Shown one piece after another: positions 1,738 to 56,937 of a stretch of 64,000 bases of DNA (the first letter of the stretch is position 1; every line of letters starts with the position of its first letter). The position numbers and the translations under genes are program-made. Under the pieces are notes generated by a model, which was given only the letters and a program-made list of their open reading frames with translations, was not told the DNA's origin and made no database searches. Source of the stretch: an uncultured Methylomirabilota bacterium (GTDB taxonomy: Bacteria > Methylomirabilota > Methylomirabilia > Methylomirabilales > 2-02-FULL-66-22); contig CAWJSJ010000003.1 in NCBI GenBank assembly GCA_963845565.1, forward strand, positions 95,148 to 159,147, given 5' to 3'.

Positions 1738-1983
1738 CGCATGATACTCCTTTCAAGGGTCGTGTGATGCTCGCGTTGCACCGAAGCGGTGCGTTCGCGA
1801 TAGGAACGTTGGCCCACTTGGGGAGGCGGTAGTATAGCACAACAAGCGCCTCCCGGCTCCATGAACCTCAGTTTATGCCGTCGCGACGATGCGGCGTGTC
1901 TTGGAGGGATGGCATCCACAACGCCGGCGTGTTTAGGCAGCCGATTCCGAGTGCAATGCAGATGCGGGGATTCGTGCAAAAAA

Positions 1984-30571: not shown

Positions 30572-31569
30572 CAGCGCCTCCCCCACCGCCGGAACATGCC
30601 GACGAGCCCCGCCGGTTGGAAGACCGCCATGGTGGTCAGCAGGGCGCCGTAGATGAGCAGGTCCACGGCGCTCCCGGTGCCGCCCCATTTGATGCGGGTG
30701 AACTCCGACAGCGGCAGCATCAGGGCCGAGCCGACCAGCGGCCCCCAGAGCGTCCCGGTGCCGCCGACCACCGTCAAGAGACAGACCAGGATGGACAGCG
30801 AGAGCGGGAACACGCTGTCGGGATCGAGGTAAAGCAGGTATTGGGCGTAAAAGGTTCCTCCGGCCGCCATGAAGCCCGCCGAGATCGCCATGGCGATGAG
30901 CTTGTACTTGGTGACCGAGATCCCCACGCTCTGCGCTGCGTCGGGGTCTTCGCGGACGGCCTTGAGGTAGTACCCCAGCCGGGCGCGCTCGATGCGCCAG
31001 GTGACGTAGAAACAGACGGCCATCAACGCCAGGATGATGTAATAGTAGAGATACTTGGTGCCGTGGAACTGGAAGGCGGCCAGCGAGTCCTGCCGGATCG
31101 GTAGCGTGAGTCCCCGGGCGCCCCCGATAAACTCCCAATTGATGGCCAACGTGTGGATGATCTCGCCGATGGCGATCGTCGCAATCGCAAAGTAGTGCCC
31201 GCGCAGCCGGAAGCAGGGGTACCCGATCACCTGCGACAGCGCCACGGCCAGGATCACTCCGATGACCAACCCCAGCCAGGGATTCACGCCGAATGCCATC
31301 TGGAGCGCGCTCGAGGTGTACGCCCCCGTCCCGAAGAAGACCGCATGACCGAGCGAGACTTGCCCGCAGTAACCGGCCAGGATGTTCCAGGCCTGGGCCA
31401 GCATCGCGAACAAGAGGACCTTGATGGCCAGGTCTCGGTGGTATGGCATCGTGAAGACCAGCGGGAACGCCAGGGCCACGACGACGAGGATGCCGAAGAG
31501 GGCGCTCAACACTTTTCGACGCCCACGGGAGCTTTGCCCTACCGTGTCCACCGTCTTTTCGGTCGCCAT
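30571..31569 (-). CDS. ABC permease (LivM-like)
   Basis: WNILAGYCGQVSLGH, GGTGTLWGP. Confidence 0.93.
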   Translation of the reverse strand: MATEKTVDTVGQSSRGRRKVLSALFGILVVVALAFPLVFTMPYHRDLAIKVLLFAMLAQAWNILAGYCGQVSLGHAVFFGTGAYTSSALQMAFGVNPWLGLVIGVILAVALSQVIGYPCFRLRGHYFAIATIAIGEIIHTLAINWEFIGGARGLTLPIRQDSLAAFQFHGTKYLYYYIILALMAVCFYVTWRIERARLGYYLKAVREDPDAAQSVGISVTKYKLIAMAISAGFMAAGGTFYAQYLLYLDPDSVFPLSLSILVCLLTVVGGTGTLWGPLVGSALMLPLSEFTRIKWGGTGSAVDLLIYGALLTTMAVFQPAGLVGMFRRWGRR

Positions 31570-32447
31570 CAGAATTTCCCGAACAGGCCTTGCGGCCGGA
31601 TCAGCACCACGATGAGGTAAACGAGGAACACGGCCACATACTTGAACGCTGGGGCGATGAGCAGGCCCCCAAGGACCTCGATGACGCCGATGATGATGCC
31701 GGCCGCCAGCGACCCGGGAATACTCCCGAAGCCTCCGAGAGCCACGGTCACATACGCGATCAGGCCGAACAGGCTTCCGACATAGGGGAAGACGTAGAAA
31801 AAGCTGGCGAGGAACGCCCCGGCGATGCCGACGGTGGCCGAACTGATCCCCCAGCCCAATGTGAACATTCGCTCGGTGTTGATCCCCATCAGCGCCGCGG
31901 CCTGCCGATCCTGGGCCGTCGCCTCGAGGGCGGCCCCCGTCTCGGTCTTGGTGATGAACCAGTAGAGGAAGCCGAAGGCCAAGAGCGAAGCGGCGCTCGC
32001 CACGAGCTGCGGAAGGCCGACGGAGATCCCAAAGATCTTCACCGGACCCTGCACCAGCGGCTTCGCCACCTGCCGAAAGTCCGGCGACCAGAGGAACTGG
32101 GCGGCCGCCCGGATGAAGATCCCCAGGCCGAAGGTCGCGAAGATCTGCGCCAGCATGGGGGCGCCCAGAATCCGCTTGATGATGCCCTTGTGTGTGGCCC
32201 ACCCCACGGCGAAGAGGACCGCCCCGCAGACCGGGACGCTGAAGAGCGGGTCCAGGGCGAACAGGGTGTACATCCAGAACGCCGTGTACATGCCCAGCAT
32301 CAGAAACTCGCCGTGGGCGAAGTTCACGATCTCCATCAGGCCGAAGATCAGACTGAGGCCCGCGGCGATGAGCGCATAGAGGCACCCCATGAGGATCCCG
32401 CTCATGATCCCCTGGATCAGGACCTCGGCAGACGGTAGCTCCATCAT
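31569..32447 (-). CDS. ABC permease (LivH-like)
   Basis: GLSLIFGLMEIVNFAHG, LGGFGSIPG. Confidence 0.93.
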   Translation of the reverse strand: MMELPSAEVLIQGIMSGILMGCLYALIAAGLSLIFGLMEIVNFAHGEFLMLGMYTAFWMYTLFALDPLFSVPVCGAVLFAVGWATHKGIIKRILGAPMLAQIFATFGLGIFIRAAAQFLWSPDFRQVAKPLVQGPVKIFGISVGLPQLVASAASLLAFGFLYWFITKTETGAALEATAQDRQAAALMGINTERMFTLGWGISSATVGIAGAFLASFFYVFPYVGSLFGLIAYVTVALGGFGSIPGSLAAGIIIGVIEVLGGLLIAPAFKYVAVFLVYLIVVLIRPQGLFGKF

Positions 32448-32519
32448 AGATATACAACAGGGGCGGGGATTCGCGTCTGGCACACCCCCGCCCCCGGCTC
32501 CCCTCGTGGTGGTCCGGTG

Positions 32520-39875: not shown

Positions 39876-40751
39876 TCAGTAGATCAACTTGTTCAGCGGA
39901 TACTCGACGATACCCTCCGCCCCCGCCTTCTTCAGCTTGGGGATCAGGCTCCGGGCGACCTGCTTGTCGATGATCACCTCGAGGGCCACCCATTCCGGGT
40001 CGACCTGGCTGGAGATGGTGGGCGTGTGGAGCGACGGGAGCTGGCCCGACACCTGGTCCAACTTCGCCCGCGGGACGTTCATCTTCAACCCCACCTTTCC
40101 TTCTGCCTCCAGCGCCCCCTTGAGCAGTGTGGCCAGCACCTCGATCCGCTCCCGCTTCCAGGGATCCGCCCAGGCCTGGCGGCTGGCGATGAGCTTGGTC
40201 GTCGATTCCGCCACCGTGTCGATGATCCGCAGATGATTGGCGCGCAACGACGCACCCGTCTCCGTCCCTTCGACGATGGCGTCCACGAGCAGGGGGGCCT
40301 TGATCTCCGTGGCACCCCACGAGTACTCCACCTCGGCCGCGACGCCGTTCTGTTTGAGGTATCGCTTGGTCGCGTGCACCAACTCGGTGGCGATCCGCTT
40401 CCCCTCCAGATCCTTCACGCTCTGGATGCCGGAGGCTTCCGGCACCGCCAGGACCCACCGGTAGGCCTGCGTCGTGTTCTTGCTGTACACCAGATCCTCG
40501 ACCTCCACCACGTCCGCCTCGTTCTCGAGGATCCAATCCTTCCCCGTCAGGCCGACGTCCAGCACGCCTCGTTCCACGAACCGGGCCATCTCCTGGGCGC
40601 GGAACATCAGGCATTCGATCTCCGGATCGTCGATCACGGGGATGTAGGAGCGGTCCCGCACCAGGATCTTGTACCCGGCCTTCTCGAAGAGATCGATCGT
40701 GGACTTCTGGAGGCTTCCCTTCGGCAATCCCAGCTTCAGCACGTTCTTCAT
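39876..40751 (-). CDS. hisG: ATP phosphoribosyltransferase (long form)
   Basis: [33 protein letters not shown]-terminal regulatory domain. Confidence 0.96.
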
Positions 40752-40974
40752 CAGGCGCGCGTTCCTTTCCGTGTCTCCCGACCCCGATCCCCCGTCGCTG
40801 TCCCTGTCCCTGTCGCGGCGCCGGAACGCTATCACCGCAGCCGCCATTGTCAAGAGGAATTGCCGACGCCGGGCGGACCTCCAACGCGTGAAAGGCATTG
40901 GCCGCAGCCGGATTTCGTGGTAATTTCACGGACCTCGTTCACCGATAGAATCCAGTCCCCCGACGGAAGGACGT

Positions 40975-41784
40975 ATGAATCGCCAAGCGCTCTTGAAGCT
41001 CCTGAGACACGTTCGCACCGACAAGATCACGCCCGAAAAGGCGGCGGAGCAACTCCGCCATTTGCCCTACGAGGACATGGGCTTCGCTCGGATGGATAAC
41101 CATCGGGCTTTGCGCCAGGGATTCCCGGAGGTGATCTTCTGCGAAGGGAAGACGGTCGAGCAAGTCGCCGCCATCGCGGAGCGCATCGTGGAACGCCACG
41201 GCACCCTCCTCGCGACCCGCGCCACCGCCGAGATGTTCGCTGCCGTGAGGGCTTCCGCTCCGCGTGCCGTGTATCATCCTCTGAGCCGCGCCATCGTCGT
41301 CACGGCGCCGCGACCGCCGCGTCCGGTGGGCCGGGTGCTGGTCGTCTCCGCGGGCACCTCGGACATTCCGGTGGCCGAAGAGTCCGCCGTGACCGCGGCA
41401 ATTCTCGGGAGTCGCGTGGAGACGCGATACGACGTGGGCGTCGCGGGGTTGCACCGGATCCTGGATGCTCGGGAAGCCCTGGAAGCCGCCAACGTCATCG
41501 TGGTGGCGGCCGGCATGGACGGCGTCCTGCCGTCCGTGGTGGGCGGCCTGGTCGCCAAGCCCGTGGTCGCCGTCCCGACCAGTGTCGGATACGGGGCGAG
41601 TTTCCACGGCCTCGCCGCGCTCCTCACGATGCTCAATTCCTGCGCCGCCGGGGTGGCGGTCGTGAACATCGACAACGGCTTCGGCGCCGGCGTCCTGGCG
41701 CACCGGATCAATGCGTTGGGTGCGAAAGGCCGAGCCGCGAGACCGCGCAGCCGCGACAAGACGCTTCGCAAGCGCCGGGGATAG
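40975..41784 (+). CDS. larB: Nickel-pincer cofactor biosynthesis protein LarB
   Basis: AGTSDIPVAEE, DVGVAGLHR, PTSVGYG, VNIDNGFGA. Confidence 0.94.
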   Translation: MNRQALLKLLRHVRTDKITPEKAAEQLRHLPYEDMGFARMDNHRALRQGFPEVIFCEGKTVEQVAAIAERIVERHGTLLATRATAEMFAAVRASAPRAVYHPLSRAIVVTAPRPPRPVGRVLVVSAGTSDIPVAEESAVTAAILGSRVETRYDVGVAGLHRILDAREALEAANVIVVAAGMDGVLPSVVGGLVAKPVVAVPTSVGYGASFHGLAALLTMLNSCAAGVAVVNIDNGFGAGVLAHRINALGAKGRAARPRSRDKTLRKRRG

Positions 41785-41795
41785 GAACGAATCGC

Positions 41796-42998
41796 ATGCG
41801 TATCGGATACTTCGACTGCTTCAGCGGCTGCAGCGGGGACATGATTCTCGGCGCCCTCGTGGACGCCGGGCTCCCGCTGGCAGAACTTCAGGCGGCGATC
41901 GACGGCCTCCAGGTTTCGGGTATCACGTTGCGCGGCGAAACGGTCAAGCGGGGCGCGTTCCGCGGGACCCTCGTCCGGGTGGAGACGGAAGAGCACGGTC
42001 ATCCCCATCGCCATTTGGCCGACATCCTGAGAATCCTGGACGCCGCCGAGATCCCCGCAGACGTGCGCGCGGACGCCACCCGGATTTTCCAGCGTCTCGC
42101 CGAGGCCGAGGCCGCGGCACATGGCGTCCACATCGAGAAGATCCACTTCCACGAGGTGGGCGCCCTGGACGCCATCGCCGACATCGTCGGGGCCGCCTGG
42201 GGCATCCGGCGGCTGGGCCTCGCAGCAATCTACGTCTCCCCCATCAACCTGGGGAGCGGCTTCGTGAAGGGGGCGCACGGGACCATGCCGGTTCCCGCCC
42301 CGGGAACCGCCGCCCTGCTCGCCGGGTTCCCGGCTTACGGCAGTGAGACCCCGATGGAGCTGACGACACCCACCGGGGCCGCCATCCTCACCTCGCTGGC
42401 CAGCGGCCACGGCCCCATGCCCGCCATGACGGTCGAGCGGACCGCGTACGGCGCCGGCCAGCGCGACCTCGGAACACACCCCAATTTGCTCCGCCTGATC
42501 GTTGGGGAGTCGGCGGCGCGGCACGAGCGGGATCAGGTCGCGGTGCTCGAGGCGAACATCGACGACATGAATCCCCAGTTCTTCGAGCCGCTCCTGGAGC
42601 GCCTCTTCGAGGCCGGAGCGTTGGACGCGTTTCTCTCGCCGCTCCTCATGAAGAAGTCGCGGCCGGCCTCACTCCTCACGGTCCTGGCGGAACCGGAACA
42701 CGCGGAAAGGCTGGTCGCCCTCATCCTGGGCCACACGACGACCTTCGGCGTCCGCACCTACACCGCCAGCCGATGGAAGCGGTCCCGGGACTTCGTCACC
42801 GTCGCGACGCCGTATGGCCAGGTCCGCATCAAGCGCGGCCTCGACGGGGGCCGGGTGACGATCCTCTCGCCGGAATTCGAGGACTGCCGTCGCCTGGCGA
42901 AGGTCGCCGGCGTCTCGGTTCAAGCCGTGTACGAGGCGGCGAAGCGTGCCGCCCACGAGGCGGAGTCCACCCACCCCCCCGCGGAGACCACGAAATGA
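41796..42998 (+). CDS. larC: Nickel insertion protein LarC
   Basis: DCFSGCSGDMILGAL, HFHEVGALD, EANIDD, PEFED. Confidence 0.94.
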   Translation: MRIGYFDCFSGCSGDMILGALVDAGLPLAELQAAIDGLQVSGITLRGETVKRGAFRGTLVRVETEEHGHPHRHLADILRILDAAEIPADVRADATRIFQRLAEAEAAAHGVHIEKIHFHEVGALDAIADIVGAAWGIRRLGLAAIYVSPINLGSGFVKGAHGTMPVPAPGTAALLAGFPAYGSETPMELTTPTGAAILTSLASGHGPMPAMTVERTAYGAGQRDLGTHPNLLRLIVGESAARHERDQVAVLEANIDDMNPQFFEPLLERLFEAGALDAFLSPLLMKKSRPASLLTVLAEPEHAERLVALILGHTTTFGVRTYTASRWKRSRDFVTVATPYGQVRIKRGLDGGRVTILSPEFEDCRRLAKVAGVSVQAVYEAAKRAAHEAESTHPPAETTK

Positions 42999-43879
42999 CC
43001 TTGGAACGGATTGTCGGGCCGGCGCACTATGTCGCCGGCCGCGTGAACATCGGCGTGATCGTCGGGGACGGGCAGGCCGCCTTCATCGACAGCGGCCTGG
43101 ACGAGGGCGCAGCCCGCAAGGCCGTCCAGGCGGTCGAGCAGGCCGGGCTTCGCGGCGTGGCTCTGATCAACACCCACGCCCACGCCGATCACTGCGGCGG
43201 GAACGCCTTTCTGAAGAAGCGCACGGGCGCCACCGTCTATGCCCCGGCCATCGAGGCGGCGCTCGTCCAGCACCCCGAGATCGAGCCGTTCTACCTCTTC
43301 GGTGCCGCCCCGTTTCCGGCCATCGACACCAAATGGTTCCATGCCACGCCATCTCTGGTGGACCAGATCCTCGGGACGACGCTCGCCGTCTGCGGTTTGG
43401 ACCTGGAGATCCTCCCCACGCCGGGTCATTCCATCAACCAGGTGGCCGTCCTGACGGCGGACGCGGCGTTCCTCGGCGACGCCGTCGTGGCGCCGGCGCT
43501 CCTGGAGCGGTATCCCATCCAGTACTGCTACGACGTCCCCGCCCACCGGGCCACGCTGGAGCGACTCGCCGGACTGCGGAAGGCCTGGTACGTCGGCGCC
43601 CACTTCCCACCGACGCAGGATATGGAGGGGCTCGTCGCCGCCAACCGGCGGAATCTGGAGCGGACGGCGGATGCCGTCCTGGCCGCCGTGGCGCCCGCCT
43701 CCACCACCGAGGATGTCATCGCGGGGGCCACAGAGGCGCTGGGCGTCCTGAGCATGGACGCCTCCGCCTACCTCCTCAACGCCGCCGCGATCAAGGCCCA
43801 TCTCTCCGCCCACGTACGCGACGGCCGCCTGGTCTTCGACATCCACGACCGCCGCCCCCTCTGGCGGCGCCCGGCGTAG
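42995..43879 (+). CDS. MBL-fold metallo-hydrolase
   Basis: THAHADHCGG, PGHS; ATGA overlap with larC. Confidence 0.88.
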   Translation: MTLERIVGPAHYVAGRVNIGVIVGDGQAAFIDSGLDEGAARKAVQAVEQAGLRGVALINTHAHADHCGGNAFLKKRTGATVYAPAIEAALVQHPEIEPFYLFGAAPFPAIDTKWFHATPSLVDQILGTTLAVCGLDLEILPTPGHSINQVAVLTADAAFLGDAVVAPALLERYPIQYCYDVPAHRATLERLAGLRKAWYVGAHFPPTQDMEGLVAANRRNLERTADAVLAAVAPASTTEDVIAGATEALGVLSMDASAYLLNAAAIKAHLSAHVRDGRLVFDIHDRRPLWRRPA

Positions 43880-43915
43880 GGCGACTCGACCACGAGCGGC
43901 GCTAGCCGCACGGGA

Positions 43916-43990
43916 GCCAAAAAAACACGCAGGGCCTCGGAGACCCCCGAGGCCTTGCGTGTATCGCTTCGAACCCGAGTCCCAGTCTTG
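43916..43990. repeat. Imperfect direct repeat (left copy) containing a minus-strand terminator
   Basis: GCCAAAAAA..GGCCTCGGAGACCCCCGAGGCCTTGCGTG..CGCTTCGAA; recurs at 57569-57640. Confidence 0.7.
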
Positions 43991-44169
43991 AGGGTGATTT
44001 ATTCTCACCAATCAACGGGTATGGATCCCAAGGCAAGCCCTGGACCTCGTTCCGCGGCAGCCCGCGGGGTATCGCCCGTCAACGAATTGGTTATGTCATT
44101 TCATCCAGAAACCCAATGGCGGTTCATTATCGGCGCAAAGACTACATGGAGTTTCGTCCCGGGGTAGGA

Positions 44170-44650
44170 CGCTTCGGTGCACGGCTCCCGGAAGGCGGCC
44201 TCGTCGAAGCCCGGATCCAGCTGGCGGATGTGGCCGAGACCCCGGTCCCGGTCCTGTTGCCAGGTCGGGGTGTCCAGCGTGACGGTCGGCGCCGCGCCCA
44301 GGTTGAATGGCGCGACCATGGCGCGGTCGACGGGGCCGTCCGCGAGGGTCACCGCCTGCCGGGCCCGTATGCGCCGGACGACCCAGTAGATCAGACAGGC
44401 GACCCCGGCCAACAAGAGCAGATCCATCATGCCGAAGCCGCCGCCACTGGCCCCGCCGGCAAACCCCAGGCTGCGGAAGAGCATCCCGCCCAGGAGGCCC
44501 CCCACGAGCCCGCCCGCCAGGGACCGCAGGAACCCACCCGCGGGCGCGGGTTGGGCCATGGGTGAGGGCGCCGGGGCCGGGGTCGGCCGCGTGCTGGGGG
44601 TCGGGGCCGGGGCGCTGTAGGTCCGGCTAGGGCTCGAGAAGCTCCGCACG
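44170..44650 (-). pseudogene. Tim44-domain membrane protein remnant
   Basis: RSFSSPSR, Pro-rich linker, GGLVGGLLGGMLF, ..LDPGFDEAAF; no start codon and truncated before the Tim44 domain. Confidence 0.65.
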
Positions 44651-44711
44651 CCGCGGGTGCACGTTCGTCTGGCGGGGCGTCCGCCCTGCGTCCCCCCTCT
44701 TCGACCGCCCG

Positions 44712-45694
44712 CTACCGTGCGGGGCGGGCCGCACCGGACGTCCGGCCGGTCGCGTCCTTCAGGTACCGATAGAAGTCGCTGTCCGTGGTGAGGATCACGT
44801 CGAATTCTTGTTCTGCCCCTCCTTGTAGACCTCCAGGGTGCGCAGGAATGCGTAGAACTCGGGATTGCGGCTGAAGGCGGCGCCATAGACCTGCGTTGCC
44901 TCCGCATCGGCCTTGCCGCGGATCTCCTGCACCCGGCGGTAGGCGGTGGATCGGATCTGGCGCAGTTCTTTTTCCATGGTTCCGAGGATTTCCGCGCTCC
45001 TGCCCTTCTCCCTCCGACCGGAACTGGGCGGCGATGCGTTTCCGCTCGGAGATCATCCGGGCATACACCTTCTCCCGGACGCTCTCCACGTAGTCGAGAC
45101 GTTTGATGCGCACGTCCACCAGCTCGATCCCATACTGGGGGATGATCTTCCGCGCCTCGGTCAGGATGGTGCGGGTGATCTCCTCCCGCCCGCGGGTGAT
45201 CTTCTTCTTGAGCTCCTCCTGCAGCTCGGCCGGGACTTCTTCGCAGGACTTCGTCCTCGGGAACTTCCCACGATGCGCTGCGGACGAGCTCGACCAGTTC
45301 ACTGCTCGACACCTGGTCGCGGACCACGGAATCGATGATATCGTTCAGACGGGACTGAGCCCCCGCTTCCGTGGCCACGTTCTCCAGGAACTTCTTGGCA
45401 TCGGCGATTCGCCAGCGCGCCGTGGTGTCCACCCAGATGAACTCCCGTCCCTTGGTGGGGATCTGGTTGGGGTCGCCATCCCAGATGAGGAGGCGCTTCT
45501 CGAAACGCCGGACCTCCTGGATGAAGGGGAGCTTGATGTGCAGCCCCGCCTCGGTCACCGGCTCCCCCACGGGCCGGCCGAACTGCACGATGACCGCCTG
45601 CTGGCCCTCCTCCAGCGTGTAGAACGTGCCGGAGAGCACGAGCAGGATCGCCAAGACCAGGATGACCCAGCCCGACCTTCAGCGCGGTCTTCAT
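44712..45694 (-). CDS. hflC: Protease modulator HflC (several frameshifts)
   Basis: EGQQAVIVQFG, GLHIKLPFIQ, RMISERKRIA, PEFYAFLRTLE, SDFYRYL spread over frames. Confidence 0.85.
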
Positions 45695-46755
45695 GCTGCT
45701 TCCCTCCTTCGGCGGCCGGCTTGCTCCCGGATTCCAGGGGGAGCCAGGGGATCAGGGCTTTCTGGTCGCTGTCGACGATATAGAGGTCCTTCGCCTCCGC
45801 CAGGAAGCCGCCCAGGGATTCCAGGTAGAGGCGCCGCCGCGTGACCTCCGGAGCGCGCTGGTACTCGTCCAGGATGGCCAGAAAGCGGTTGGCCTCCCCG
45901 GTGGCCCGGTTGACGCGCTCGAGGGCGTAGCCTTCGGCCTGGCTGATGGTCTGGGTCGCCTCGCCGCGGGCCTTGGGGATTTCCCGGTTGGCCTGCTCCT
46001 GGGCCTGATTGATCGTCCGTTCCCTGTCCTGGCGCGCCTCGTTGACCTCGTTGAAGGCCGGCTTCACCGAATCCGGAGGCGTCACGTCCTGGAGTTCCAC
46101 GGTGACCAGACGGACCCCGGTCTCGTATTCGGTGAGGATCTTCTGAATCTCCTCCTTCACCTCGGTGGATACGTCGACCCGGCCCACGGTGAGCACGTCG
46201 CTGCCGAGACGGTTGCCCGACCACCCGGCGCATGACCGCCTCGGTGATGTCCCGGATCGTCTTCCGAGTGTCGCGCACCTGGAAGAGAAAGCGGATCGGG
46301 TCCTCGATCCGGTACTGGATGATCCACTGGACGTCGATCACGTTGAGGTCCCCCGTCAGCATGAGGGACTCGTCTTTGAGGCTTCTTGTCCGCGGTATTG
46401 CGTCCGCTGGCCGGCCGCGGTGGCCGTCGTCCGGAAGCCGAACTCCTCCTTGAGGACCCGGGCGGTGGGGACCATCCGAACGGTCTCGATCCCATACGGC
46501 AGCTTGAAGTGCAGACCCGGCCCGACTGTGCGGACGACCTCCCCGAATCGCTGGACGCATGCCCGTCTCTTCGGGCTGGACCGTGAACCAGCTCGACCAG
46601 AACAAGACGACCACGAGGAAGACCAGCGCCCCGGCGGCGAGCCGCCAGATTCCCGGGCCGCGGAAGAAATCCCGCGCCTGCCTGAATACGCGCTCCAGGT
46701 CGGGTGGCGGCCAGCGGGTCCCCCCGCCCGGGTCCTCGAATTCATACTGTCGCAT
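45691..46755 (-). CDS. hflK: Protease modulator HflK (several frameshifts)
   Basis: GPGLHFKLPYGIE, MLTGDLN, VKPAFNEVNEARQ, APEVTRRRLYLE. Confidence 0.85.
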   Translation of the reverse strand: MRQYEFEDPGGGTRWPPPDLERVFRQARDFFRGPGIWRLAAGALVFLVVVLFWSSWFTVQPEETGMRPAIRGGRPHSRAGSALQAAVWDRDRSDGPHRPGPQGGVRLPDDGHRGRPADAIPRTRSLKDESLMLTGDLNVIDVQWIIQYRIEDPIRFLFQVRDTRKTIRDITEAVMRRVVGQPSRQRRAHRGPGRRIHRGEGGDSEDPHRIRDRGPSGHRGTPGRDASGFGEAGLQRGQRGAPGQGTDDQSGPGAGQPGNPQGPRRGDPDHQPGRRLRPRARQPGHRGGQPLSGHPGRVPARSGGHAAAPLPGIPGRLPGGGEGPLYRRQRPESPDPLAPPGIREQAGRRRREAA

Positions 46756-46927
46756 GGCGTGTCTCCTTCCTATGAGGGTGGTGTGCGATCTGGCTGGCGC
46801 GGTGCATTCTCTCTGCACACATCGTTCCTAGGATCGGGGCGACAGCGAACGCCCTTCCCGTTCACCGCTCCCCACTCGCGGGCAGGGAAAGCGCGGCTCA
46901 GGATGCCGGTGCCCCCCAGCGCCTTGG

Positions 46928-47071
46928 CTACTGGTCAGCGGGGCCATCCGCTTGTTCTTTCTCACGCAGCATTTCCGCCTCGGCTTGGAACCAGTCGTCC
47001 CATTCGCCCCCGGGCTGGCCGCCCCGACCGAGGAAGAGGGTGTAGGCGCGGGCAGCGATTTCCTTCTCGAT
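46928..47071 (-). CDS. 47-aa DUF2934-like small protein (missing from ORF track; ATC start after GGAGG)
   Basis: Manual translation IEKEIAARAYTLFLGRGGQPGGEWDDWFQAEAEMLREKEQADGPADQ*. Confidence 0.7.
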   Translation of the reverse strand: MEKEIAARAYTLFLGRGGQPGGEWDDWFQAEAEMLREKEQADGPADQ

Positions 47072-47128
47072 CGGTGCGCCTCCGTCTCTCCCGCCGCGAC
47101 CCGATCGCTCGGGTGCACCGAGGTGGGG

Positions 47129-47265
47129 AAAAACAAAAACCCTTCAGCGGCCGGTTCAGCCGCGAAGGGTCTTGATCCGGGGACACGGTCCCCGCTGAGA
47201 GGCCGGGCGTCTGCGCGCCGTCCTGACGACCTCATCAGACCAGCCGAGTGATCTACTCCCCCTTG
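47129..47265 (-). ncRNA. yybP-ykoY (Mn2+) riboswitch with overlapping terminator, copy 1
   Basis: AAGGGGGAGTAG..CGTCAGGACGG..CCGG..CAAGACCCTT, then hairpin and U-tract. Confidence 0.85.
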
Positions 47266-47274
47266 CTGTCGCGC

Positions 47275-47334
47275 ACTGTACCGAAAGGCGACTCCGGTTG
47301 TCAATCATATTCGCATATAATTGTTCAATCATTC
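47275..47334 (-). promoter_or_regulatory. sigma70 promoter plus conserved operator-like motif, copy 1
   Basis: TTGACA-N18-TACAGT; upstream motif (plus strand) CATATTCG..TAATTG..TCATTC shared with 56462-56520. Confidence 0.7.
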
Positions 47335-48020
47335 ACTACTCGGCCGCGCGCCGCATGCGTCGGCCGTGCTGCCGTCTGCGCGCCGCGCCGCCGCTTCACG
47401 ACTTCGACTGCCGCCGGCGCCGCGCTGACGATGACGATCGCCAGGATGACGTACTGGAAATTCTGCTGGACCGCAGGGAGCGTCCCGATGGTATACCCCA
47501 GGCCGACGAAGATCAACACCCAGGCCACGGCGCCCACGACGTTGAAGAGGGCGAAGCGTCCATAGCGCATCTGCCCCATCCCGGCCACGAATGGCGCGAA
47601 CGTGCGGACGATCGGCACGAAGCGGGCGAGAATGATCGTCTTGCCGCCATGCCGTTCGTAGAAACGCTGCGCGGTCGCCAGATGCCGGGGGTTCAGGAGC
47701 CAGGCACGGTGCGACCGACACAGCCGTGATCCGAGCCGAGCGCCGACCGCGTAGTTGAGCGCATCGCCCAGGATGCCGGCGAGGATCAGCAGCGCGGCGA
47801 CCACCCCGATGTGGATGGGCGTGCCCGGCATGGCGGCCAGGGCCCCAACGGCGAAGAGCAGGGAGTCCCCGGGCAGAAACGGCGTCACGATCAGCCCCGT
47901 CTCGCAGAAGACGATTATTGCGAGCACGACGTAGAGCCAGGGGCCAAGGCTGCCCGCCCACTCCGCCAGTGTCACGTCGATGCGGGTGACGAGACTCCAC
48001 AGGTCCGCAAGCAATTCCAT
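47325..48020 (-). CDS. dedA: DedA family protein
   Basis: ETGLIVTPFLPGDSLLF, ARFVPIVRTFAP. Confidence 0.95.
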   Translation of the reverse strand: MELLADLWSLVTRIDVTLAEWAGSLGPWLYVVLAIIVFCETGLIVTPFLPGDSLLFAVGALAAMPGTPIHIGVVAALLILAGILGDALNYAVGARLGSRLCRSHRAWLLNPRHLATAQRFYERHGGKTIILARFVPIVRTFAPFVAGMGQMRYGRFALFNVVGAVAWVLIFVGLGYTIGTLPAVQQNFQYVILAIVIVSAAPAAVEVVKRRRGAQTAARPTHAARGRVVND

Positions 48021-48436
48021 CAACCGGCTCCCTGCAGGAGCGCCCGCAGCGGCTCCAGTAGTGCAACGAGGGCGGCGGAGGCTGGGATCAGTAACACTCG
48101 CAGGCTGGCGGTCTGGTCGCCGGGGAACGCGGGCTGGGCGTGCCCCAGACCGGCCAATGCGAAGACGCCAAACAGCGCGAGAACGACATACGCGGCGAGG
48201 GCAGTGAGCCCGAGGAGGTCCAGGAACGCGCCCGCAATGACCAGCGGAAGTCGCGACAACCGCCGACGCAGCGAGGCGAGCCGGGCTGACCTCTGCTGCG
48301 GCAACCGCCGCCCCGAGTCAGCATCCTCCACATCCGCGACCCCGCCCAGGTCGTGGGCTACACGGGCGGTATGCCAAGACGTCTCGCGCCTTCCCCGCGT
48401 CCCCGCGGTATACCCCCACCTCTGGCTCGCAGCCAT
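48020..48436 (-). CDS. Hypothetical membrane protein
   Basis: AAGGAGG RBS, hydrophobic C-half, TGATG coupling to dedA. Confidence 0.55.
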   Translation of the reverse strand: MAASQRWGYTAGTRGRRETSWHTARVAHDLGGVADVEDADSGRRLPQQRSARLASLRRRLSRLPLVIAGAFLDLLGLTALAAYVVLALFGVFALAGLGHAQPAFPGDQTASLRVLLIPASAALVALLEPLRALLQGAG

Positions 48437-48449
48437 TCTCTTGCCTCCT

Positions 48450-48890
48450 TCAGCGGTACGCCCACGGATCCGGCACTGCTTTGATTGACCTCTCCGTCCA
48501 CCGCTGCTCCTCGCGCCAGCGCCACTGCCCCGCCGCCACCGGGCGATAACGCCACCGGAATCCGCTCCCACTGCGGTTGAGCCGTTTGCCGTCGCCCGTC
48601 ACCGCCACGGCGACTCGCCTGTACGCGGAGACGATCGGCCCCCCCGGCGAAGCCAGCGCGACCGCGCATCGCACCGTGAACCCGCATCCCCGACATCGCT
48701 TTTAGCGGGCCGTCCAGTTGCCCCTCGGTCTCCCGGTCTCCCAGCTCCACCATTGCCTCCTGGCAGCAGGGGCCAGCGCGTGACGGGGATGACGATCCCG
48801 CGCCGGGAAGCTGCGCTGACGCCCTCCCGAACCGAGGGGCGGCCTTCTCTCCCGTTCGCGCCGCAACTCTCGCCGCCGTGTGGCGGCCGG
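48450..48890 (-). pseudogene. Disrupted GPCC..CxxCGFTVR protein (paralog of 60261-60539)
   Basis: Reconstructed IVIPSRAGPCCQEAMVELGDRETEGNWTAR*KRCRGCGFTVRC; two indels and one TAA; start approximate. Confidence 0.6.
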
Positions 48891-49226
48891 TCACCTCGAT
48901 TGGAACAGGCGCAGCCAGAAGTCCCTCGGCGCACTCCGTGCCGCGCGGAACCCTCCGAGGGCGCCCGAGCGATGGGGCCCGATCACAAGTGCGCCGCCAC
49001 ACTCCACGTGCACAAAGGCCCCGGTTTCGACGAGCAGCCCGACGTCTAGCCGGTCCCGGACCTGCGTCCAGCACCGCGCACATCGGTGCCCCGTCCGCTC
49101 CCAGGTCTCGAGACACTGGCGGCAGATGGCGAGGCGTGGGCGAAAGGGGGAACGGAGCGCGCGTTCCCACGTCCCGCAGACCTCACCGCACCTGCCACAA
49201 CGGAATCCGGCCAGCAGCCGCCACAT
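48891..49226 (-). CDS. Small double zinc-finger protein
   Basis: GGAGG RBS; CGRC, CRQC, CARC, HVEC. Confidence 0.6.
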   Translation of the reverse strand: MWRLLAGFRCGRCGEVCGTWERALRSPFRPRLAICRQCLETWERTGHRCARCWTQVRDRLDVGLLVETGAFVHVECGGALVIGPHRSGALGGFRAARSAPRDFWLRLFQSR

Positions 49227-49357: not shown

Positions 49358-52133
49358 TCACTCACGATCCTGCTCGCCCGTCTGCCCACCCTGGCCGCGC
49401 CGACCGGACCCGGGCCACCGGCCGGCCACCCATTTGCCCGTCTCGACGAGCAGAAAGCCGGCTCCGCTCACCGAGAGCGCGACTCCCCAGTCGGCCCAGG
49501 TCAACGGGATGACATGGAAGGCTTTGGCCCACGCTGGGATGTAGATCACCGCGAGCGTCATGGCCCCCGAACCGAGGGTGGCGAGCCAAAGCCACCGGTT
49601 GCCGAAGACCCCGAGCTGTAGGACGGTGAACCGGAGCGAGCGACAGGTGTGCGCGAAGAAGAGCTCGAAGAGGATCAGGGTCACGAAGGTCATGCGTCTG
49701 CGCCTTGGCCACGCCCTCTGTCTGCCAGTAGGTGTAGAAGATCGGCACCAGCCCCGCCACGATGATCAGACTGAGACTGAGGAGCGCGGTGAGGACGGAC
49801 CAGCCGAAGACCGCGTCTCCCGATTTCCGCGGGGCCCGGCGCATCAGGTCCGGTTCCGCCGGCTCCACGCCCAGCGCCAAGGCCGGGAGCCCGTCCGTGG
49901 TGAGGTTCACCCAGAGTATCTGCAGGGCCACGAGCGGGAGCGGCCACCCGATGAAGCCCGCCATGCCGAGGAGCAGGATCTCTGCGACATTGCAGGACAG
50001 GAGGAAGGTCAGATATTTCTTGATGTTGTCATAGATGACCCGGCCTTCCTCCACCGCGGCGACGATGCTGGCGAAGTTGTCGTCCGCCAACACCATGTCG
50101 CAGGCTTCCTTGGTGACGTCTGTACCCGTGATGCCCATGGCCACCCCGATGTCCGCACGCTTGAGGGCCGGGGCGTCGTTCACGCCGTCGCCTGTCATGG
50201 CGACCACGTGCTGCTGGCTCTTCCAGGCACCCACGATCTTCATCTTGTGCTCGGGGGACACCCGGGCGTACACGGCCACCTCGTCGACCATGCGCGCGAG
50301 GTCGGCCTCCGAGAGACGATCCAGCTCCCGGCCCTCGAGGACCCGGAGAGAGGTGCCCTTCCCGTTGCCGCCGGCCCCGTTGCCATTGCCCCTCTTGAAC
50401 AACCCGAGCTCGCGCGCCACCGCAGTCGCGGTGAGCTTGTGATCGCCCGTGATCATGACCGTGCGAATCCCCGCTTCGCGACAGGAGCGGATGGCCTCGC
50501 GCGCCTCGTCCCGCGGCGGGTCGATCATGCCCACGAGCCCGAGGAACGTCAGGTCGGTCTCCAAGGTCTCGGGGGTCATGGCAGCCGGGACGCCGTCTAG
50601 GCGCCGGTAGGCGATCCCCAGGACGCGGAGCGCGTCAGTCGCCATCCGGTCGTTCGACTCCAGGATCCGCGCGCGGATGGCTGATGTGAGCGGCTCCAGG
50701 CGTCCATCCCGCTCCCACGCCACGCAGCGGTCTACCAACACATCCGGCGCGCCCTTTACGAAGGCCACCACGCTCCCGTCCCGGTCCGCGTGGACCGTGC
50801 TCATGCGTTTCCGCTCGGACTCGAAGGGGATCTCGGCCACCCGGGGCCAGACCTGCCGGAGGTCCGCCGCCTGCATGCCGGCCTTCTCCGCGAGGACCAG
50901 GAGCGCCGCCTCCGTGGGATCGCCCTTGACCCGGCGGCTCCCGTTCTCACCGACGAAGTGCGTATCGTTGCAGAGCGCGCCGGCCTGGAGCAGCCGCTCC
51001 GCAGCGGGATCCGCGACGACCGCCACCGCCCCACCGTTGATGCGGAACTCCCCGACCGGGTCGTAGCCAACGCCCGTGACGTCGAGCAGCCGCCCGCCGG
51101 CGAAGACCTTTCGGACCGTCATCTCGTTTCGAGTCAGCGTCCCCGTCTTGTCGGAGCAGATGACGGTCGTGCAGCCAAGGGTCTCCACCGCCGGGAGGCG
51201 GCGGATGATGGCGCGGCGGCGCGCCGCGCGCTGCACCCCGATAGCCAGCGCGCCGGTCACGACGGCCGCCAGGGCCTCCGGCACCGCGGCAATAGCCAGG
51301 CTCACGCCCCAGATGAGCATCTCGAGCGGGGGATTGCCGCGGAAGATGCCCAGCGCGACCACGGCGGCCGAGACCCCGAGGCAGGCCAGGCCCAGCCGCT
51401 TTCCGATGTAGTCCATCTTGATGGCCAGGGGTGAAGGGTCTTCCACGACGTCCTGGAGCATCTTGGCGATCCGGCCGAACTCCGTCTGCATGCCGGTGGC
51501 GGTCACCACGGCCTGGCCGCGTCCGTACGTCACCACCGTCCCGGCGAACACCATGTTGCGCCGGTCGCCCACCCCCGCCTCCAGCCCGAGCCGCGCGTGA
51601 ACATCCTTCTCCACGGCCGTCGATTCGCCGGTGAGCGACGCCTCGTCCACCCGCAGGTTCGCGGCCTCCAGGAGCCGCGCATCCGCCGGTACCCGATCGC
51701 CGGCGTTGAGGAGGAGCACGTCGCCAGGGACGACCTCGGCCGAGGCCACCTCGATGGGCTCGCCCCCCCGGACCACCGACGCGCTCGGCGCGGCCATGGC
51801 CTTCAGCGCCTGCATCGCGCGCTCGGCGCGGAACTCCTGGTAGAAGCCGAGGAGCGCGCTCACGATGACGATACTGAAGATCACCGTGGCGTCCAGGGTG
51901 TGCCCCAGGAGCAGGGAGAGCCCGGTGGCCCCGATCAGGAGCAGGATGAGGAAGTTCTTGAACTGCGCCAGGAGGATGTGCCAGGGGCTCACGCCCTTCT
52001 CTTCCCGCAGCGTGTTTGGGCCGAACCGCTGCAGCCGGACAGCCGCCTCAGCAGGGCTGAGCCCCGTAGGAGTCGTGTCCAGCCCTCGCAGTGTCTCGTC
52101 GGCCGTCAAGTGATACCACCGTGTCTCCACCAT
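49358..52133 (-). CDS. Type II (Ca2+/Mn2+-like) P-type ATPase; frameshift near 49695
   Basis: TGES, VPEAL, DKTGT, TGDGVND, CNVAE, NLTTDGLPALAL. Confidence 0.93.
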
Positions 52134-52280
52134 CGCTCCTCCTCGCTTCCTCAGTTGTCGTCGGTGCAGTGTGACATGAGCAGTATGGATCGCCTCAACC
52201 CCGCGTCGTCGGCTCAGTAGCCCGGTATCCGCGGTGGCCGCCACGTGTCTGCGCGAATCGCGCGGCCACCACGCCAACCC

Positions 52281-53413: not shown

Positions 53414-54783
53414 GGCGGGAAGGATTCCGCAGCGGGCGGCTTCGCCAGCCGCTGATCGCGGCGCTCGAGCGTCCGGGGATGCACCTGCAGGATCTGGGCG
53501 GCACGGGCCCGGTCGCCATGCACCTCGGCGAGCACGCGCTCGATGTAACGCTCCTCCAGGTCACGGAGGCTCCAGTTGTGGGCCAGGCCCATCTCAAGGA
53601 TCTCGCCCTGCTCCCGCACCGAGGACGGGAGATCCGCCGGCGTGATGAGCTCCGCACGCGCGAAGGCCACGGCGCGCTCCATGGCATTCTCCAACTCGCG
53701 GACGTTCCCGGGCCAGCGGTAGGCCTCCACAAGCGCTATCGCCTCGGACGTCAGGCCGCGAACCGGCCGCTCCTGCTGCGCGGCGAACTTCCCGACGAAA
53801 TGGCGCACGAGCCGCGGGAGGTCGCTCGCTCGCTCGCGGAGCGGGGGAAGGTGAATGCCCACGACGTTGAGCCGGTAGTAGAGATCCGCACGGAACGTGC
53901 CGGCATCGATCTGGGCATTCGGGTCGCGATTGGTCGAGGCTATGGCCCGGAACTCTACCACCGTGCCGCGGTTGCTCCCCAGGGGACGCACTTCCCGATC
54001 CTCGAGGACGCGGAGAAGTTTCGCCTGCAGGGCGACGGACATCTCGGAGATCTCGTCGAGGAAGAGCGTTCCCCCGTGCGCCTCCTCCACCAGGCCCTTC
54101 CGGGCCGTCGCGGCCCCGGTGAAGGCCCCGCGGACGTGGCCGAACAACTCGCTTTCGAGCAGAGTTTCGGGAATCGCGGCGCAGTTCAGCGCGACGAAGG
54201 GGCCCCGACGTCTCGGGCTGTTGTAGTGAATGGCCTTCGCCACCAATTCCTTGCCGGTCCCGCTCTCGCCTGTCACGAGGACGCTGAGATCGGCACGCGC
54301 GGCACCCGCGATCAGCGCGAACACTTCCTGCATCCCGGGGCTGCTTCCGACCAGGCTCGCGAAACCATAGCGCCGCTCGACCTCGCCCCGGAGCGAGCGG
54401 TTCTCGCGCCGAAGGCGCGTATCTTCCAGGGCCCGCTCCAGCGCCAGGACGAGTTCCTCGATCTCGAACGGCTTGGAGACATAATCGAAGGCGCCCTGTT
54501 TCACCGCCTCGATCGCGGAGGCGATCGTGGCGAAGGCGGTGATGATGATGACCTTCGCTTCGGGCTGGCTCTCCGCGGCTGCCCGCACGATCTCCAACCC
54601 GTCGAAGTCGGGCATTCGGAGATCGGTCACCACCGCATCCACGGGCGCTTCGCGGAGGATTCGCATCCCCGCCGCGCCGGAGGACGCGGGGAGGACCGTG
54701 AAGCCGCACGCGGCGAGTTCCTGCTCCAGCAAACGCACAATCTCGCCGTCGTCATCCACGACCAGCACTCTGGCCTCAGGCAC
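53395..54783 (-). CDS. NtrC-family sigma54-dependent response regulator
   Basis: Receiver, GESGTGKE, GAFTGA, WPGNVREL, Fis HTH. Confidence 0.95.
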   Translation of the reverse strand: MPEARVLVVDDDGEIVRLLEQELAACGFTVLPASSGAAGMRILREAPVDAVVTDLRMPDFDGLEIVRAAAESQPEAKVIIITAFATIASAIEAVKQGAFDYVSKPFEIEELVLALERALEDTRLRRENRSLRGEVERRYGFASLVGSSPGMQEVFALIAGAARADLSVLVTGESGTGKELVAKAIHYNSPRRRGPFVALNCAAIPETLLESELFGHVRGAFTGAATARKGLVEEAHGGTLFLDEISEMSVALQAKLLRVLEDREVRPLGSNRGTVVEFRAIASTNRDPNAQIDAGTFRADLYYRLNVVGIHLPPLRERASDLPRLVRHFVGKFAAQQERPVRGLTSEAIALVEAYRWPGNVRELENAMERAVAFARAELITPADLPSSVREQGEILEMGLAHNWSLRDLEERYIERVLAEVHGDRARAAQILQVHPRTLERRDQRLAKPPAAESFPPDTVSD

Positions 54784-56276
54784 GCCGCGCCTCCCGCCGG
54801 TCCCCCGGCAGCCAGATGGTGAAGCGAGCACCCTCGCCCGGTGCGCTCTCGACGGTGATGGTCCCCTCGTGTGCCCGCACGATGTCGAGGCAGATGCTGA
54901 GCCCGAGCCCGGTACCGCCGCTCCCCTTGGTGGAGAAGAAGGGATTGAAGATGCGCTCTAGATCCTCTGGGGCGATCCCCGTCCCGGTGTCCGTGACGCA
55001 CAGCGCGATGCCCGCGCGGCCGTCCTGATGCACCGCGGCCGCGGAGACACCCACATGGCCTCCGGCGGCCGTGGCCGCCGCCGCGTTCATGAGGAGATTC
55101 AAGAGGACCTGCGTGAGGCCGTCGCCATCCGCCAGGAATCGTGGGGAGGTCGGGGGGCAACGCCAGGCCGAGGTGGACGCGCCGCGCCGCGAACTCCGGC
55201 GCGGCGACTGCCGCGGCCTCGCGGACCAGCCGCCCCGCATCCATGGGCTCGTGCCGCGTGGGCAGCGCCCGGGACGATTGCAGGACCTGCTGCATGGTGC
55301 GCGTGATGCGGCTGACCTGCTCCCGGATCGTCGCCACCTCATGGCGCCGAGGATCGTCTTCCGATAGGCTCCGGCCGAGGATGCGGGCCCGCCCGGAGAT
55401 CACGTGAAGCGGAGTCCCGACCTCGTGCGCAATGACGCTCGCCAGCTTGCCCACCGCGGCGAGCCGTTCCGCGTGCCGAAGCTGGCGCTCCAGGACGGTG
55501 CGGGTCTCCTCCGCACGCCGGCGCTCGTCCTGCGCGTCCGCCAAGTTGCCGGCCATGCGGTTAAAGGCCCGGCCCAGCTCGCCGATCTCCGTGTGTCCCA
55601 CGGCCGAGACCCGGGCGGTCAGGTTGCCTTGCCCGATCTCAGCGGCTCCCGCGATGAGACGTCGGATCGGGCGGGTGACCAACAGTGCGATTCCGATCCA
55701 CACGGTCACGCCGATGGCGACGAGCGCCCACGCCCGCTCCACCAGGATGGTGTTCCGAACGGTCTGGAGCGGCCCAGAGACCCGGGCGACATCGAAGACC
55801 AGCTTGAGGATCGCCTGGGGCGAATCGTTCGGGGTGACCGGAGCTTGGATGTTGTAGGTACCCGAGAGGCTCCACTGGGCGGACACGGTTTCGGCAACGG
55901 GCTCCGGGGTGATCGCGGGCGGACAGACGTCGGGACCCCGTTCCGATGTTGCCGACTCGAACGCGGCCCGAAGGCGTCGGCCCTCCAGGGTGTACACCCC
56001 CACGCACTCGGCGCCCTTGGCCTGCCGAATGTCCTCCAACAGTCCGACCAGCCGTGGATCGTCGGGGGCGTGCAGGAGGGGCGGCACTTGCCCCTCGATA
56101 GCCTGGGTCACCAGGCTCGCTTCGCGCTGGAGCTGAGTCAACACCCGCTTCCGCTCCTGGCGAAGCCGCCACCCGTCCGCCGCCAACGTGACTCCAACGA
56201 CGGCCAGCGTGACGAGCAGAAACAGGCGCAGCCCGAGGCGATTCCGCGGCAGCAGCGCCGCCAGATGCTTGCTCAC
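54776..56276 (-). CDS. HAMP sensor histidine kinase; frameshift near 55135
   Basis: 2 TM, HAMP, HEVGTPL, NLLMNA, DTGTG, GTGLGL. Confidence 0.9.
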
Positions 56277-56314
56277 ACGCTACCTCGTCGCGGAAGCTCG
56301 GGTGACCGACCCCC

Positions 56315-56454
56315 AAACACGAAGACCCTCCACGGCCGGTGGGCCACGAAGGGTCTTGATCCGAGGGCAGCGTCCCCCGCTGGGAGGCCGGGCCGCACGC
56401 TATGGCGGCCGGCATGACGACCTCGCCAGACCGACGGCGATCTACTCCCCCTTG
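56315..56454 (-). ncRNA. yybP-ykoY (Mn2+) riboswitch, copy 2
   Basis: AAGGGGGAGTAG..CGTCATGCCGG..CCGG..CAAGACCCTT, then hairpin ending GGGTCTTCGTGTTT. Confidence 0.85.
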
Positions 56455-56461
56455 CGAGGGG

Positions 56462-56554
56462 ACTCTAGCCAACCCAACGCGCGGTGTCAACCATATTCGA
56501 ACGTAATTGAATGCTCATTCCTCCTTGACCAGCCGGCGGCGCAGCGACTAGAAT
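56462..56554. promoter_or_regulatory. Divergent promoters with shared operator-like motif, copy 2
   Basis: Minus: TTGACA-N17-TAGAGT. Plus: TTGACC-N18-TAGAAT for arsR. CATATTCGAACGTAATTGAATG lies between them. Confidence 0.7.
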
Positions 56555-56583: not shown

Positions 56584-56937
56584 GTGCCCCTGCGTCAACG
56601 CGTGCTAGAAGATGCGGCAGAGCTCCTCGGCGTGCTCGGCCATCCTAATCGGCTCCGGATCCTCGCGCTGCTCCACGACGGTGAGCGCGACGTGACCGAT
56701 TTGAAGACTCAACTCGAGGTGCCCGCGGCAAACGTCTCGCAACATCTTGGCGTCCTCCGCTCGCACCACCTCGTCACGGTCCGCCGCGCCGGCACCCGGA
56801 TGGTCTATGCGCTTCGGGACCCTCGGGTGGTCGACGTCATCAACCGCACCCTCGATTTGCTCGCTGATGACATCGCACAAGCGCCCCAGCTTCGTCGAGC
56901 GATCGAGCGCGTGCGCATTCCACCGACGAAGCCCTAA
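56584..56937 (+). CDS. ArsR/SmtB-family repressor (no Cys)
   Basis: LGHPNRLRIL..VSQHLGVLR..RRAG..VYAL. Confidence 0.9.
   Translation: MPLRQRVLEDAAELLGVLGHPNRLRILALLHDGERDVTDLKTQLEVPAANVSQHLGVLRSHHLVTVRRAGTRMVYALRDPRVVDVINRTLDLLADDIAQAPQLRRAIERVRIPPTKP

Follow-up and report, generated by a model that had tools for sequence, protein, structure and literature searches.

A yybP-ykoY-type riboswitch ahead of hflK and hflC in an uncultured Methylomirabilota bacterium, and sister copies ahead of exporter and membrane-protein quality-control genes

Known riboswitches of the yybP-ykoY class turn on transporters, and HflKC forms a cage that modulates FtsH. In this study, we report a leader RNA of this class that stands ahead of hflK and hflC in an uncultured bacterium of the phylum Methylomirabilota. 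The RNA lies at 47264-47129 on the minus strand of a 64,000-nucleotide stretch (GenBank assembly GCA_963845565.1, contig CAWJSJ010000003.1, positions 95,148 to 159,147), the whole of which is referred to here as the window.

The class has been defined by an L1 loop with an extruded adenosine and by a manganese-coordinating adenosine at the third position of L3 (PMC12153347, 10.1101/553354). In the mgtA leader, competition between a Mn2+ aptamer and a terminator yields read-through (PMC6649816), and the pH response of Escherichia coli alx requires a three-way L2 loop and an L3 of the sequence UCAUUAC (PMC13594968). In Bacillus subtilis, FtsH and HtpX co-purify with the TerC proteins, without which FtsH becomes essential (PMC10550928); MntP, as a membrane protein, is toxic when overexpressed (PMC11647493). 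These statements follow the available portions of the cited sources. In the literature covered, no paper was found that joins a yybP-ykoY or manganese riboswitch to hflK, and in the portions available htpX was not found named as a target of the class; the target tables of the two 2015 founding papers lay outside this coverage and may list such cases.

The genome comprises 5.36 Mb and is 98.7% complete; its contigs are named C1, C2 and C5, and relatives' genomes and loci carry G- and L-numbers. Comparisons were based on a covariance model, R1, trained solely on 14 RNAs of the lineage (from the present genome and six relatives), and on a class-wide tally of 33 aptamer copies from the present genome and its relatives. 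Copies from related genomes share cassettes, so that counts out of 33 are not independent. Genes behind the copies were named by Pfam and NCBIfam profile scores.

Leader RNA and its class

Read on the minus strand, the leader begins with a sigma-70-type promoter (TTGACA, 18 bases, TACAGT) at 47275-47304, the sole promoter-like match between 42000 and 49000; TTGAC stands at an equal distance from the aptamer in 24 of the 33 copies. The 100-nt aptamer (47165-47264, minus strand), identified by its fold, covariation and homologues, begins 11 bases downstream of this site. Its helix P1.1 pairs 47264-47260 with 47169-47165, L1 is formed by 47259-47254 together with 47173-47170, and P3 is capped by a seven-base L3, UCAGGAC (47226-47220), which carries the conserved adenosine at its third position. 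P1.2, a three-pair P2 and P4 complete the fold, in which four helices meet with no unpaired junction bases. The heptamer GACCCTT (47171-47165) doubles as the 5' arm of a hairpin (47171-47139, -24.9 kcal/mol) that is followed by 10 T in 11 bases, and the intrinsic terminator thus delimited (47129-47171, minus strand) shares this arm with P1.1, as in the platform of an ON switch. With the remaining aptamer helices fixed, the terminator form reaches -60.8 kcal/mol and the P1.1 form -52.2 kcal/mol; the default state would therefore be OFF, and a ligand would have to hold P1.1. The metal-free minimum-energy fold includes the terminator (z -3.25, matched by one of 200 shuffles). The scan of 42000-49000 returned no sigma-70 promoter-like or terminator-like site between the switch and hflC.

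In the 14-copy alignment of the aptamer, 90.9% of cells were paired (92.9% in P2) against 31-52% in slid controls, and 15 of 34 pairs were changed on both sides, a number that none of 500 shuffles reached; seven aptamer helices covary above every shuffle and slid control. The terminator alignment was 96.2% paired (slid controls 29-63%), with only five pairs changed on both sides, a count matched by 81 of 500 shuffles. The 5' strand of P1.1, the shared strand and the 3' arm of the terminator co-vary in three versions. Fifteen R1-aligned matches outside the training set were 91.4% paired, a figure to be read with the fitted alignment's leaning towards its model in mind. Because kin sequences can exceed shuffles without structure, more weight was given to the slid controls and to the 15 outside matches. 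The leader at 47264-47129, with its aptamer and mutually exclusive terminator, is confirmed; the preliminary description of this locus had proposed an aptamer homologous to another copy in the window, with GACCCTT shared by the terminator in ON geometry, and fold, energies and covariation agree with it.

The bases that mark the class are kept throughout the family. L1 reads GGAGUA in 32 of the 33 copies, opposite RAGA, with identical letters in alx and mntP of E. coli. L3 starts with UCA in all 33, which means that the third-position adenosine is always kept, and the C-G and G-C pairs below L3 are invariant in 14 of 14 training and 15 of 15 outside copies. R1 aligns E. coli alx from end to end (37.2 bits, E 1.6e-7; 40.4 bits with filters off) and scores mntP weakly (22.4 bits, filters off). 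Two helical legs stand on a four-way junction, the 3' half of P1.1 alternates with the expression platform, and in 27 of the 33 copies the shared strand forms part of a hairpin followed by a T-rich tail. The row of L117, read at a wrong 3' strand, counts as having no T tail in either case. By structure, the RNA therefore belongs to the yybP-ykoY class, as had been proposed, though it gives no hit to the Rfam model RF00080. By analogy with the class, and from the conserved L1 and L3 bases, Mn2+ is the probable ligand.

Some candidates were left out of the tally. An 11-base motif match at 26088 is a ribosome-binding site without an aptamer, three regular-expression matches in the genome (C2 1835282, C2 394765 and C5 529375) were unscored by R1, and a match in G217 (31.1 bits) was dropped with its L1/L3 motif missing. 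Variants were seen among the relatives: P4 is missing in L134:1501-1599 and L330:5618-5717, leaving a three-way junction, yet terC lies downstream; the T tail is missing in L133:1501-1606, L132:68-173 and L328:864-967, where the platforms may act on translation.

Sister copies, target genes and a candidate operator

The present genome holds five copies of the switch, two in the window and three on contig C2. The second window copy (56455-56347, minus strand) is homologous to the hflK leader (73% over 195 nt, E 5.7e-20), and its promoter, aptamer and terminator (56312-56485, minus strand) stand before genes for a histidine kinase, a sigma-54 regulator, a Usp protein and a P-type ATPase. R1 matched 14 of 21 genomes of the genus and, under stricter filters, 11 of 151 genomes of the phylum; a sequence pattern matched 21 of 251 genomes of the class, with none for its reversed control.

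Twenty-two of the 33 copies precede Pfam-confirmed genes for TerC (17), a P-type ATPase (4, one shared with TerC), GDT1 (1) or a Na/Ca exchanger (1). The hflKC-locus copy is not among them, and a contig end cuts three of the 11 copies without an exporter. The TerC proteins behind the switches pass the NCBIfam models R_switched_Alx and R_switched_YjbE. Quality-control genes follow seven of the 33 copies: hflKC in three, htpX in five (as the first gene in three) and ftsH in one, so that the tie to membrane-protein quality control put forward in the preliminary description recurs. A copy on C2 heads htpX-terC-ATPase-UPF0114-ftsH. In G003 the order is dksA-like, HhH, a small open reading frame, hflK and hflC; in G006, zinc ribbon, htpX and terC; and in G029, exchanger, Usp, dksA-like, htpX and, further on, hflK and hflC. 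The copy in G146 precedes an interrupted htpX, and that in G263, a genome of another family, precedes htpX. The HflK proteins of G003 and G029 are 81% identical to each other, and that of G003 is only 37% identical to the present clade, which indicates at least two separate arrivals of hflKC behind the switch. Of the three ftsH genes in the present genome, one lies behind a switch.

Other genes also recur behind the copies. DksA/TraR-like zinc-finger genes, assigned by Pfam, lie behind eight of the 33, mostly as the first gene (L042:11709-12179, L047, L051, L110, L113, L114, L117 and L327:1131-1640), and a TFIIB-type zinc ribbon lies behind others; together they may point to a link between manganese and RNA polymerase control. 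One or two MpsC-domain (PF10057) genes stand ahead of terC and usp behind the switch in L115, L116 and L120. The nearest relative of the hflK leader (78%; L043:3785-7290) has a zinc-ribbon gene and one for a UPF0182 membrane protein downstream. The window copy at 56347-56455 heads a run down to 49362 and may represent a metal riboswitch gating a two-component system; the kinase-first layout was also found in G002 and G226, and as a remnant in G100.

A candidate ArsR/SmtB operator, recognised from a shared motif, abuts the -35 box of the hflK leader at 47305-47334 (minus strand). A 12-mer within it (47318-47307) was found twice in the 5.36 Mb genome, once at the hflK leader and once within a palindrome of the htpX-terC-ATPase-ftsH promoter, against an expectation of 0.02; it recurs with one mismatch at a third switch, and a similar motif occurs in G263 and at the 56455 copy. 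Comparison of the two window copies shows conservation of the 30 bases preceding the -35 box and divergence of the promoter spacer. An ArsR/SmtB-family gene (56584-56937, plus strand; PF01022; NF033788 84 bits, cut-off 55), whose product would be a candidate binder of the operator, is transcribed divergently from the 56455 copy; with its paralogues (56-60% identical) included, ArsR genes diverge in this way from three such promoters, those of the 56455 copy, the htpX copy and G263, the last of which repeats the layout of ArsR, motif, switch and htpX. The ArsR protein of the window has no cysteines, and the motif is missing in most genus relatives. We infer that the 30-base element may be an ArsR operator that represses the promoter through a local ArsR; common descent of the cassette is an alternative account of the shared motif. 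As a candidate, the shared operator would link the hflK promoter to the htpX-terC-ATPase-ftsH unit. Immediately upstream lies a dedA-family gene (47325-48023, minus strand; PF09335 73 bits; NF008102 258.5 bits, cut-off 236), the stop codon of which overlaps the candidate operator, and with no terminator-like site between dedA and the promoter, read-through from dedA into the leader is possible.

The hflK-hflC locus

The genes behind the leader follow in the order DUF2934, hflK, hflC and a Tim44-like remnant, and none of the four is an intact open reading frame in the assembly. The sequence of hflK (45692-46755, minus strand) shows one-base indels at about 46556, 46397, 46382, 46219 and 45694, and that of hflC (44712-45694, minus strand) at about 45663, 45244, 45001 and 44797. 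The C-terminal piece of HflK scored 168.6 bits with TIGR01933 (cut-off 159.4), against 292.5 for the intact 353-aa sibling in L136, one of the relatives' hflK loci used for comparison together with L135 and L142. The HflC pieces cover TIGR01932 in order (best piece 114.8-116.7 bits, others 61 and 55.5; cut-off 134.4), against 265 bits for the intact 326-aa sibling. Relative to L136 (92.7% identical over 4.15 kb), seven of the nine indels are extra bases and two are missing ones.

In the flanks identity stands at 92-98%; over the 3' half of hflK and much of hflC, regions to which other loci are closer, it drops to 83-89%, and the C-terminal piece of HflK was placed apart from its siblings in a tree (built with FastTree only); several indels can be read as two alleles superimposed. 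In hflKC no stop codons were found and third-position changes prevail (46 of 78 in hflK, 70 of 110 in hflC), and 147 of 159 relatives align with it in one open frame. Contigs from four studies, among which other organisms at 85% likeness are mixed in, have no bases at the indel sites. The records X2 and X3 are short-read contigs, and the source sample could be among these runs; X2 record 14, at a depth equal to that of near-identical leader contigs, is without three of the extra bases. Because L136 is intact, stop codons are missing, changes favour the third position and contigs are without the extra bases, we consider it probable that the indels are an artefact of assembly or polishing; recent recombination and decay is a possible alternative source. 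Judged from these sequences, hflK and hflC are likely to be intact in the living cell. Likely single frameshifts were seen elsewhere in the window, in the kinase (54627-56276), the ATPase (49362-52277) and the ABC permeases (29810-32457), as expected of a long-read assembly.

The two outer genes are a different matter, and the unit that the preliminary description had placed under the switch held in gene order but not in counting them among the controlled genes, as both are truncated. The DUF2934 remnant of 47 codons (46928-47071, minus strand; PF11154 33.4 bits, cut-off 22) has no in-frame ATG, GTG or TTG, only ATC after GGAGG, and is without some 45 N-terminal residues of the intact 92-aa form in L135, whose identity starts at 47064. 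The truncation is real, because short-read contigs have the same letters over it with no indel. The Tim44-like piece (44101-44658, minus strand) is a start-less, truncated duplicate, 72% identical to residues 42-200 of a 350-aa protein. Its homology stops about 24 residues into the Tim44 domain (residues 177-320), and PF04280 gave no match in 44101-44658. The copy is likewise truncated in L136, and a full-length one lies on C1 at about 117000-117966. In L135 the order is Tim44, DUF2934, hflK and hflC, and in L142 Tim44, zinc ribbon, hflK and hflC, in each case with no switch in 2-3 kb upstream; the leader was therefore joined to the hflKC block by rearrangement, of which the DUF2934 and Tim44-like pieces would be passengers. 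The join is not a long-read chimera, because short-read contigs bridge leader and hflK: X2 record 15 spans 46714-47342, from the promoter to the hflK start, with two differences and no gap, and X3 record 22 spans 46789-47627 with seven differences.

The hflKC pair had also been described as accessory to a housekeeping copy. No second hflK-hflC pair was found in the 98.7% complete assembly, where three other SPFH matches are lone genes without a partner, and the pair is accessory solely in the sense that it appears patchy and horizontally spread. An hflK match at E <=1e-30 was found in six of 20 genus relatives, and the closest relatives of the C-terminal piece (74-90% identical) belong to Methylomirabilota, Desulfobacterota, Nitrospirota, Nitrospinota and Betaproteobacteria. 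The clade stands in varied gene contexts, with ftsH adjoining seven and a P-type ATPase 14 of 159 loci. In L149, L152 and L216 it occurs with ftsH and groES-groEL-like genes, possibly as a mobile protein-quality-control island.

A terminator-like hairpin at 43931-43947 (minus strand) would close the hflKC unit, but it is a weak candidate, four such sites being found against 3.0 expected in shuffles. Genes on the plus strand at 39876-43879 (hisG-like, larB-like, larC-like and metallo-beta-lactamase-fold, all but the last named by eye) converge on the unit. A class A RNase P RNA lies at 1983-2391 (minus strand, 303.6 bits).

Proposed role and comparison with known systems

The best reading, which we hold at somewhat better than an even chance, is that a Mn2+ ON switch co-induces exporters and membrane-protein quality control. 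Relief of ArsR would open the promoter at the hflK leader. Without Mn2+, the transcript would stop near 47135; Mn2+ docked in the L1-L3 pocket would hold P1.1 and block the terminator, and the polymerase would then pass the DUF2934 remnant into hflK-hflC, probably giving a single transcript from 47275 through hflC. Sister switches would simultaneously raise TerC, ATPase, HtpX and FtsH. The signal for the polytopic exporters (TerC and the P-type ATPase) would in this way also raise HtpX, one of three FtsH paralogues and the FtsH modulator HflKC, presumably to clear and control the added membrane-protein load. A fuller proposal, which we make tentatively and regard as rather doubtful, is that an Rfam-invisible Mn2+ riboswitch and an ArsR repressor form a two-key lock on a split regulon of exporters together with HtpX, a dedicated FtsH paralogue and the HflKC cage in Methylomirabilota.

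Several points weigh against co-induction at this locus. RF00080 gave no match to the leader at four sensitivities, even at E 10, none in a genome search and none at 20 of the relatives' sister-copy loci. The preliminary description had held that the lack of a covariance-model score would speak against the aptamer; formally RF00080 is silent, but in a control E. coli alx likewise escapes it and mntP reaches 41.6 bits, below the model's cut-off of 45 bits, so that its silence here is uninformative as refutation. The promoter scan of 42000-49000 covered the sigma-70 consensus only. Nine indels fall within 2 kb of hflKC and none in the flank at 42700-44170 when L136 is the reference, and both neighbours of hflKC are pseudogene remnants. 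None of the 159 closest hflK loci (112 with at least 1 kb upstream) has the switch, nor was one found there with a looser regular expression, the best R1 scores (21.2 and 20.6 bits) being partial or downstream of hflK. Conserved switch-hflK synteny within the clade is therefore rejected, and the join is recent and lineage-specific. Of 40 searched genomes that carry the clade (40 of 79 loci), one, of the same phylum, has an R1 match among the 95 candidates scored per genome, a search that weak variants may escape. In G029, hflK lies 8.5 kb behind the switch, beyond an insertion sequence, and is a weak case, and in the C2 unit ftsH could be driven independently by a promoter-like site that lies between the terC and ATPase genes. 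The value of the hflKC locus is tempered by its being a recent, scarred join with uncertain reading frames.

Such scars would be expected of the main rival reading, an accidental capture, in which a mobile promoter-riboswitch cassette was rearranged before a decaying hflKC island, so that the switch works and its product is useless. The 5' cut of DUF2934 coincides with the start of the L135 homology, the Tim44 copy is fragmentary, and the hflKC indels and the missing switch at close hflK loci fit as well, as do other copies that front broken genes (G001, G100 and G146). We nevertheless think capture unlikely: aptamer, terminator, promoter and operator are all undamaged, hflKC has no stop codons and mostly synonymous change, contigs are without several of its indels, another hflKC clade stands behind the switch in G003 and G029, and htpX does so at five loci. 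Alternatively, most transcription of an intact hflKC could start at a promoter of its own within the 175 bases preceding hflK, or depend on an alternative sigma factor, with the switch adding little. Directly upstream of hflK, a stretch of 100-150 bases is conserved at 87-94% in L135, L136 and L142, of which L135 and L142 have no switch, and the clade occurs in many gene contexts; yet no sigma-70-type site lies in those 175 bases, hflK in L135 and L142 stands behind same-strand genes and may be read from upstream, and the kept stretch may partly be coding or ribosome-binding sequence, which leaves this account improbable.

It seems equally improbable that the switch controls hflKC in response to Ca2+ or alkaline pH rather than Mn2+. 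L3 starts with U as in the pH-responsive alx (PMC12153347, in the portion available), the sister targets include Ca-type P-ATPases, a Na/Ca exchanger, MpsC-domain proteins and a Na/H exchanger, and the pneumococcal mgtA aptamer is described as binding Ca2+ tighter than Mn2+, but as still better activated by Mn2+ (PMC6649816, in the portion available). The features required for the pH response of alx (PMC13594968, likewise) are absent: P2 is paired in a four-way junction, L3 is UCAGGAC, and UCAUUAC occurs in none of the 33 copies. The alkaline induction first suggested for this leader is accordingly not retained.

Under co-induction, the repeated presence of the same RNA before hflKC, htpX and ftsH turns the TerC-FtsH dependence of B. 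subtilis into a testable regulatory claim, namely that cells raising exporter synthesis also raise membrane-protein clearance. It would also suggest what induces an HflKC clade that is widespread and horizontally shared. Because an entire multi-copy family escapes RF00080, manganese riboswitches and their targets are undercounted. If the two-key lock were true, a riboswitch would stand over a protease system, and Mn2+ overload would be the condition that accessory HflKC and FtsH copies are kept for.

Compared with described systems, the leader belongs to a riboswitch class already known, and its set of targets is unusual and recurrent. It shares with the RF00080 consensus the 5' GGGGAGUAG motif and the P3/L3 arm; that consensus has the mntP-type L3 and no P1 pairs, and the model leaves the present variant unscored. 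With E. coli alx it shares L1 (GGAGUA/RAGA), the CG-UCA..AC-G core and the P1.1 switch helix; alx precedes the TerC exporter Alx, and Alx-type TerC genes lie behind most sister copies. In contrast, alx folds as a three-way junction, is gated by pH and acts through a translational platform (PMC13594968, in the portion available), whereas the hflK leader combines a short P2 and the L3 UCAGGAC with an intrinsic terminator. Aptamer-terminator competition is common to the transcriptional Mn2+ ON switches of Streptococcus pneumoniae mgtA, Lactococcus lactis yoaB and B. subtilis ykoY (meeY) (PMC6649816, likewise), and P-type ATPase and TerC targets occur among the sister copies as in that set; the hflK-hflC target, the five copies in a single genome and the candidate ArsR operator on the promoter set the present family apart. 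HflK belongs to the same family (TIGR01933) as its counterpart among the FtsH modulators of E. coli, HflC probably does so too (TIGR01932), and the two genes follow in the same order; unlike the hfq-hflX-hflK-hflC run of that organism, HflK here is 31% identical to its counterpart, no hflX adjoins, and the clade is shared among phyla. As with the TerC proteins MeeF and MeeY of B. subtilis, TerC manganese transport is joined to membrane proteases (PMC10550928, in the portion available); there the link is physical and genetic, whereas here it is a shared regulatory RNA.

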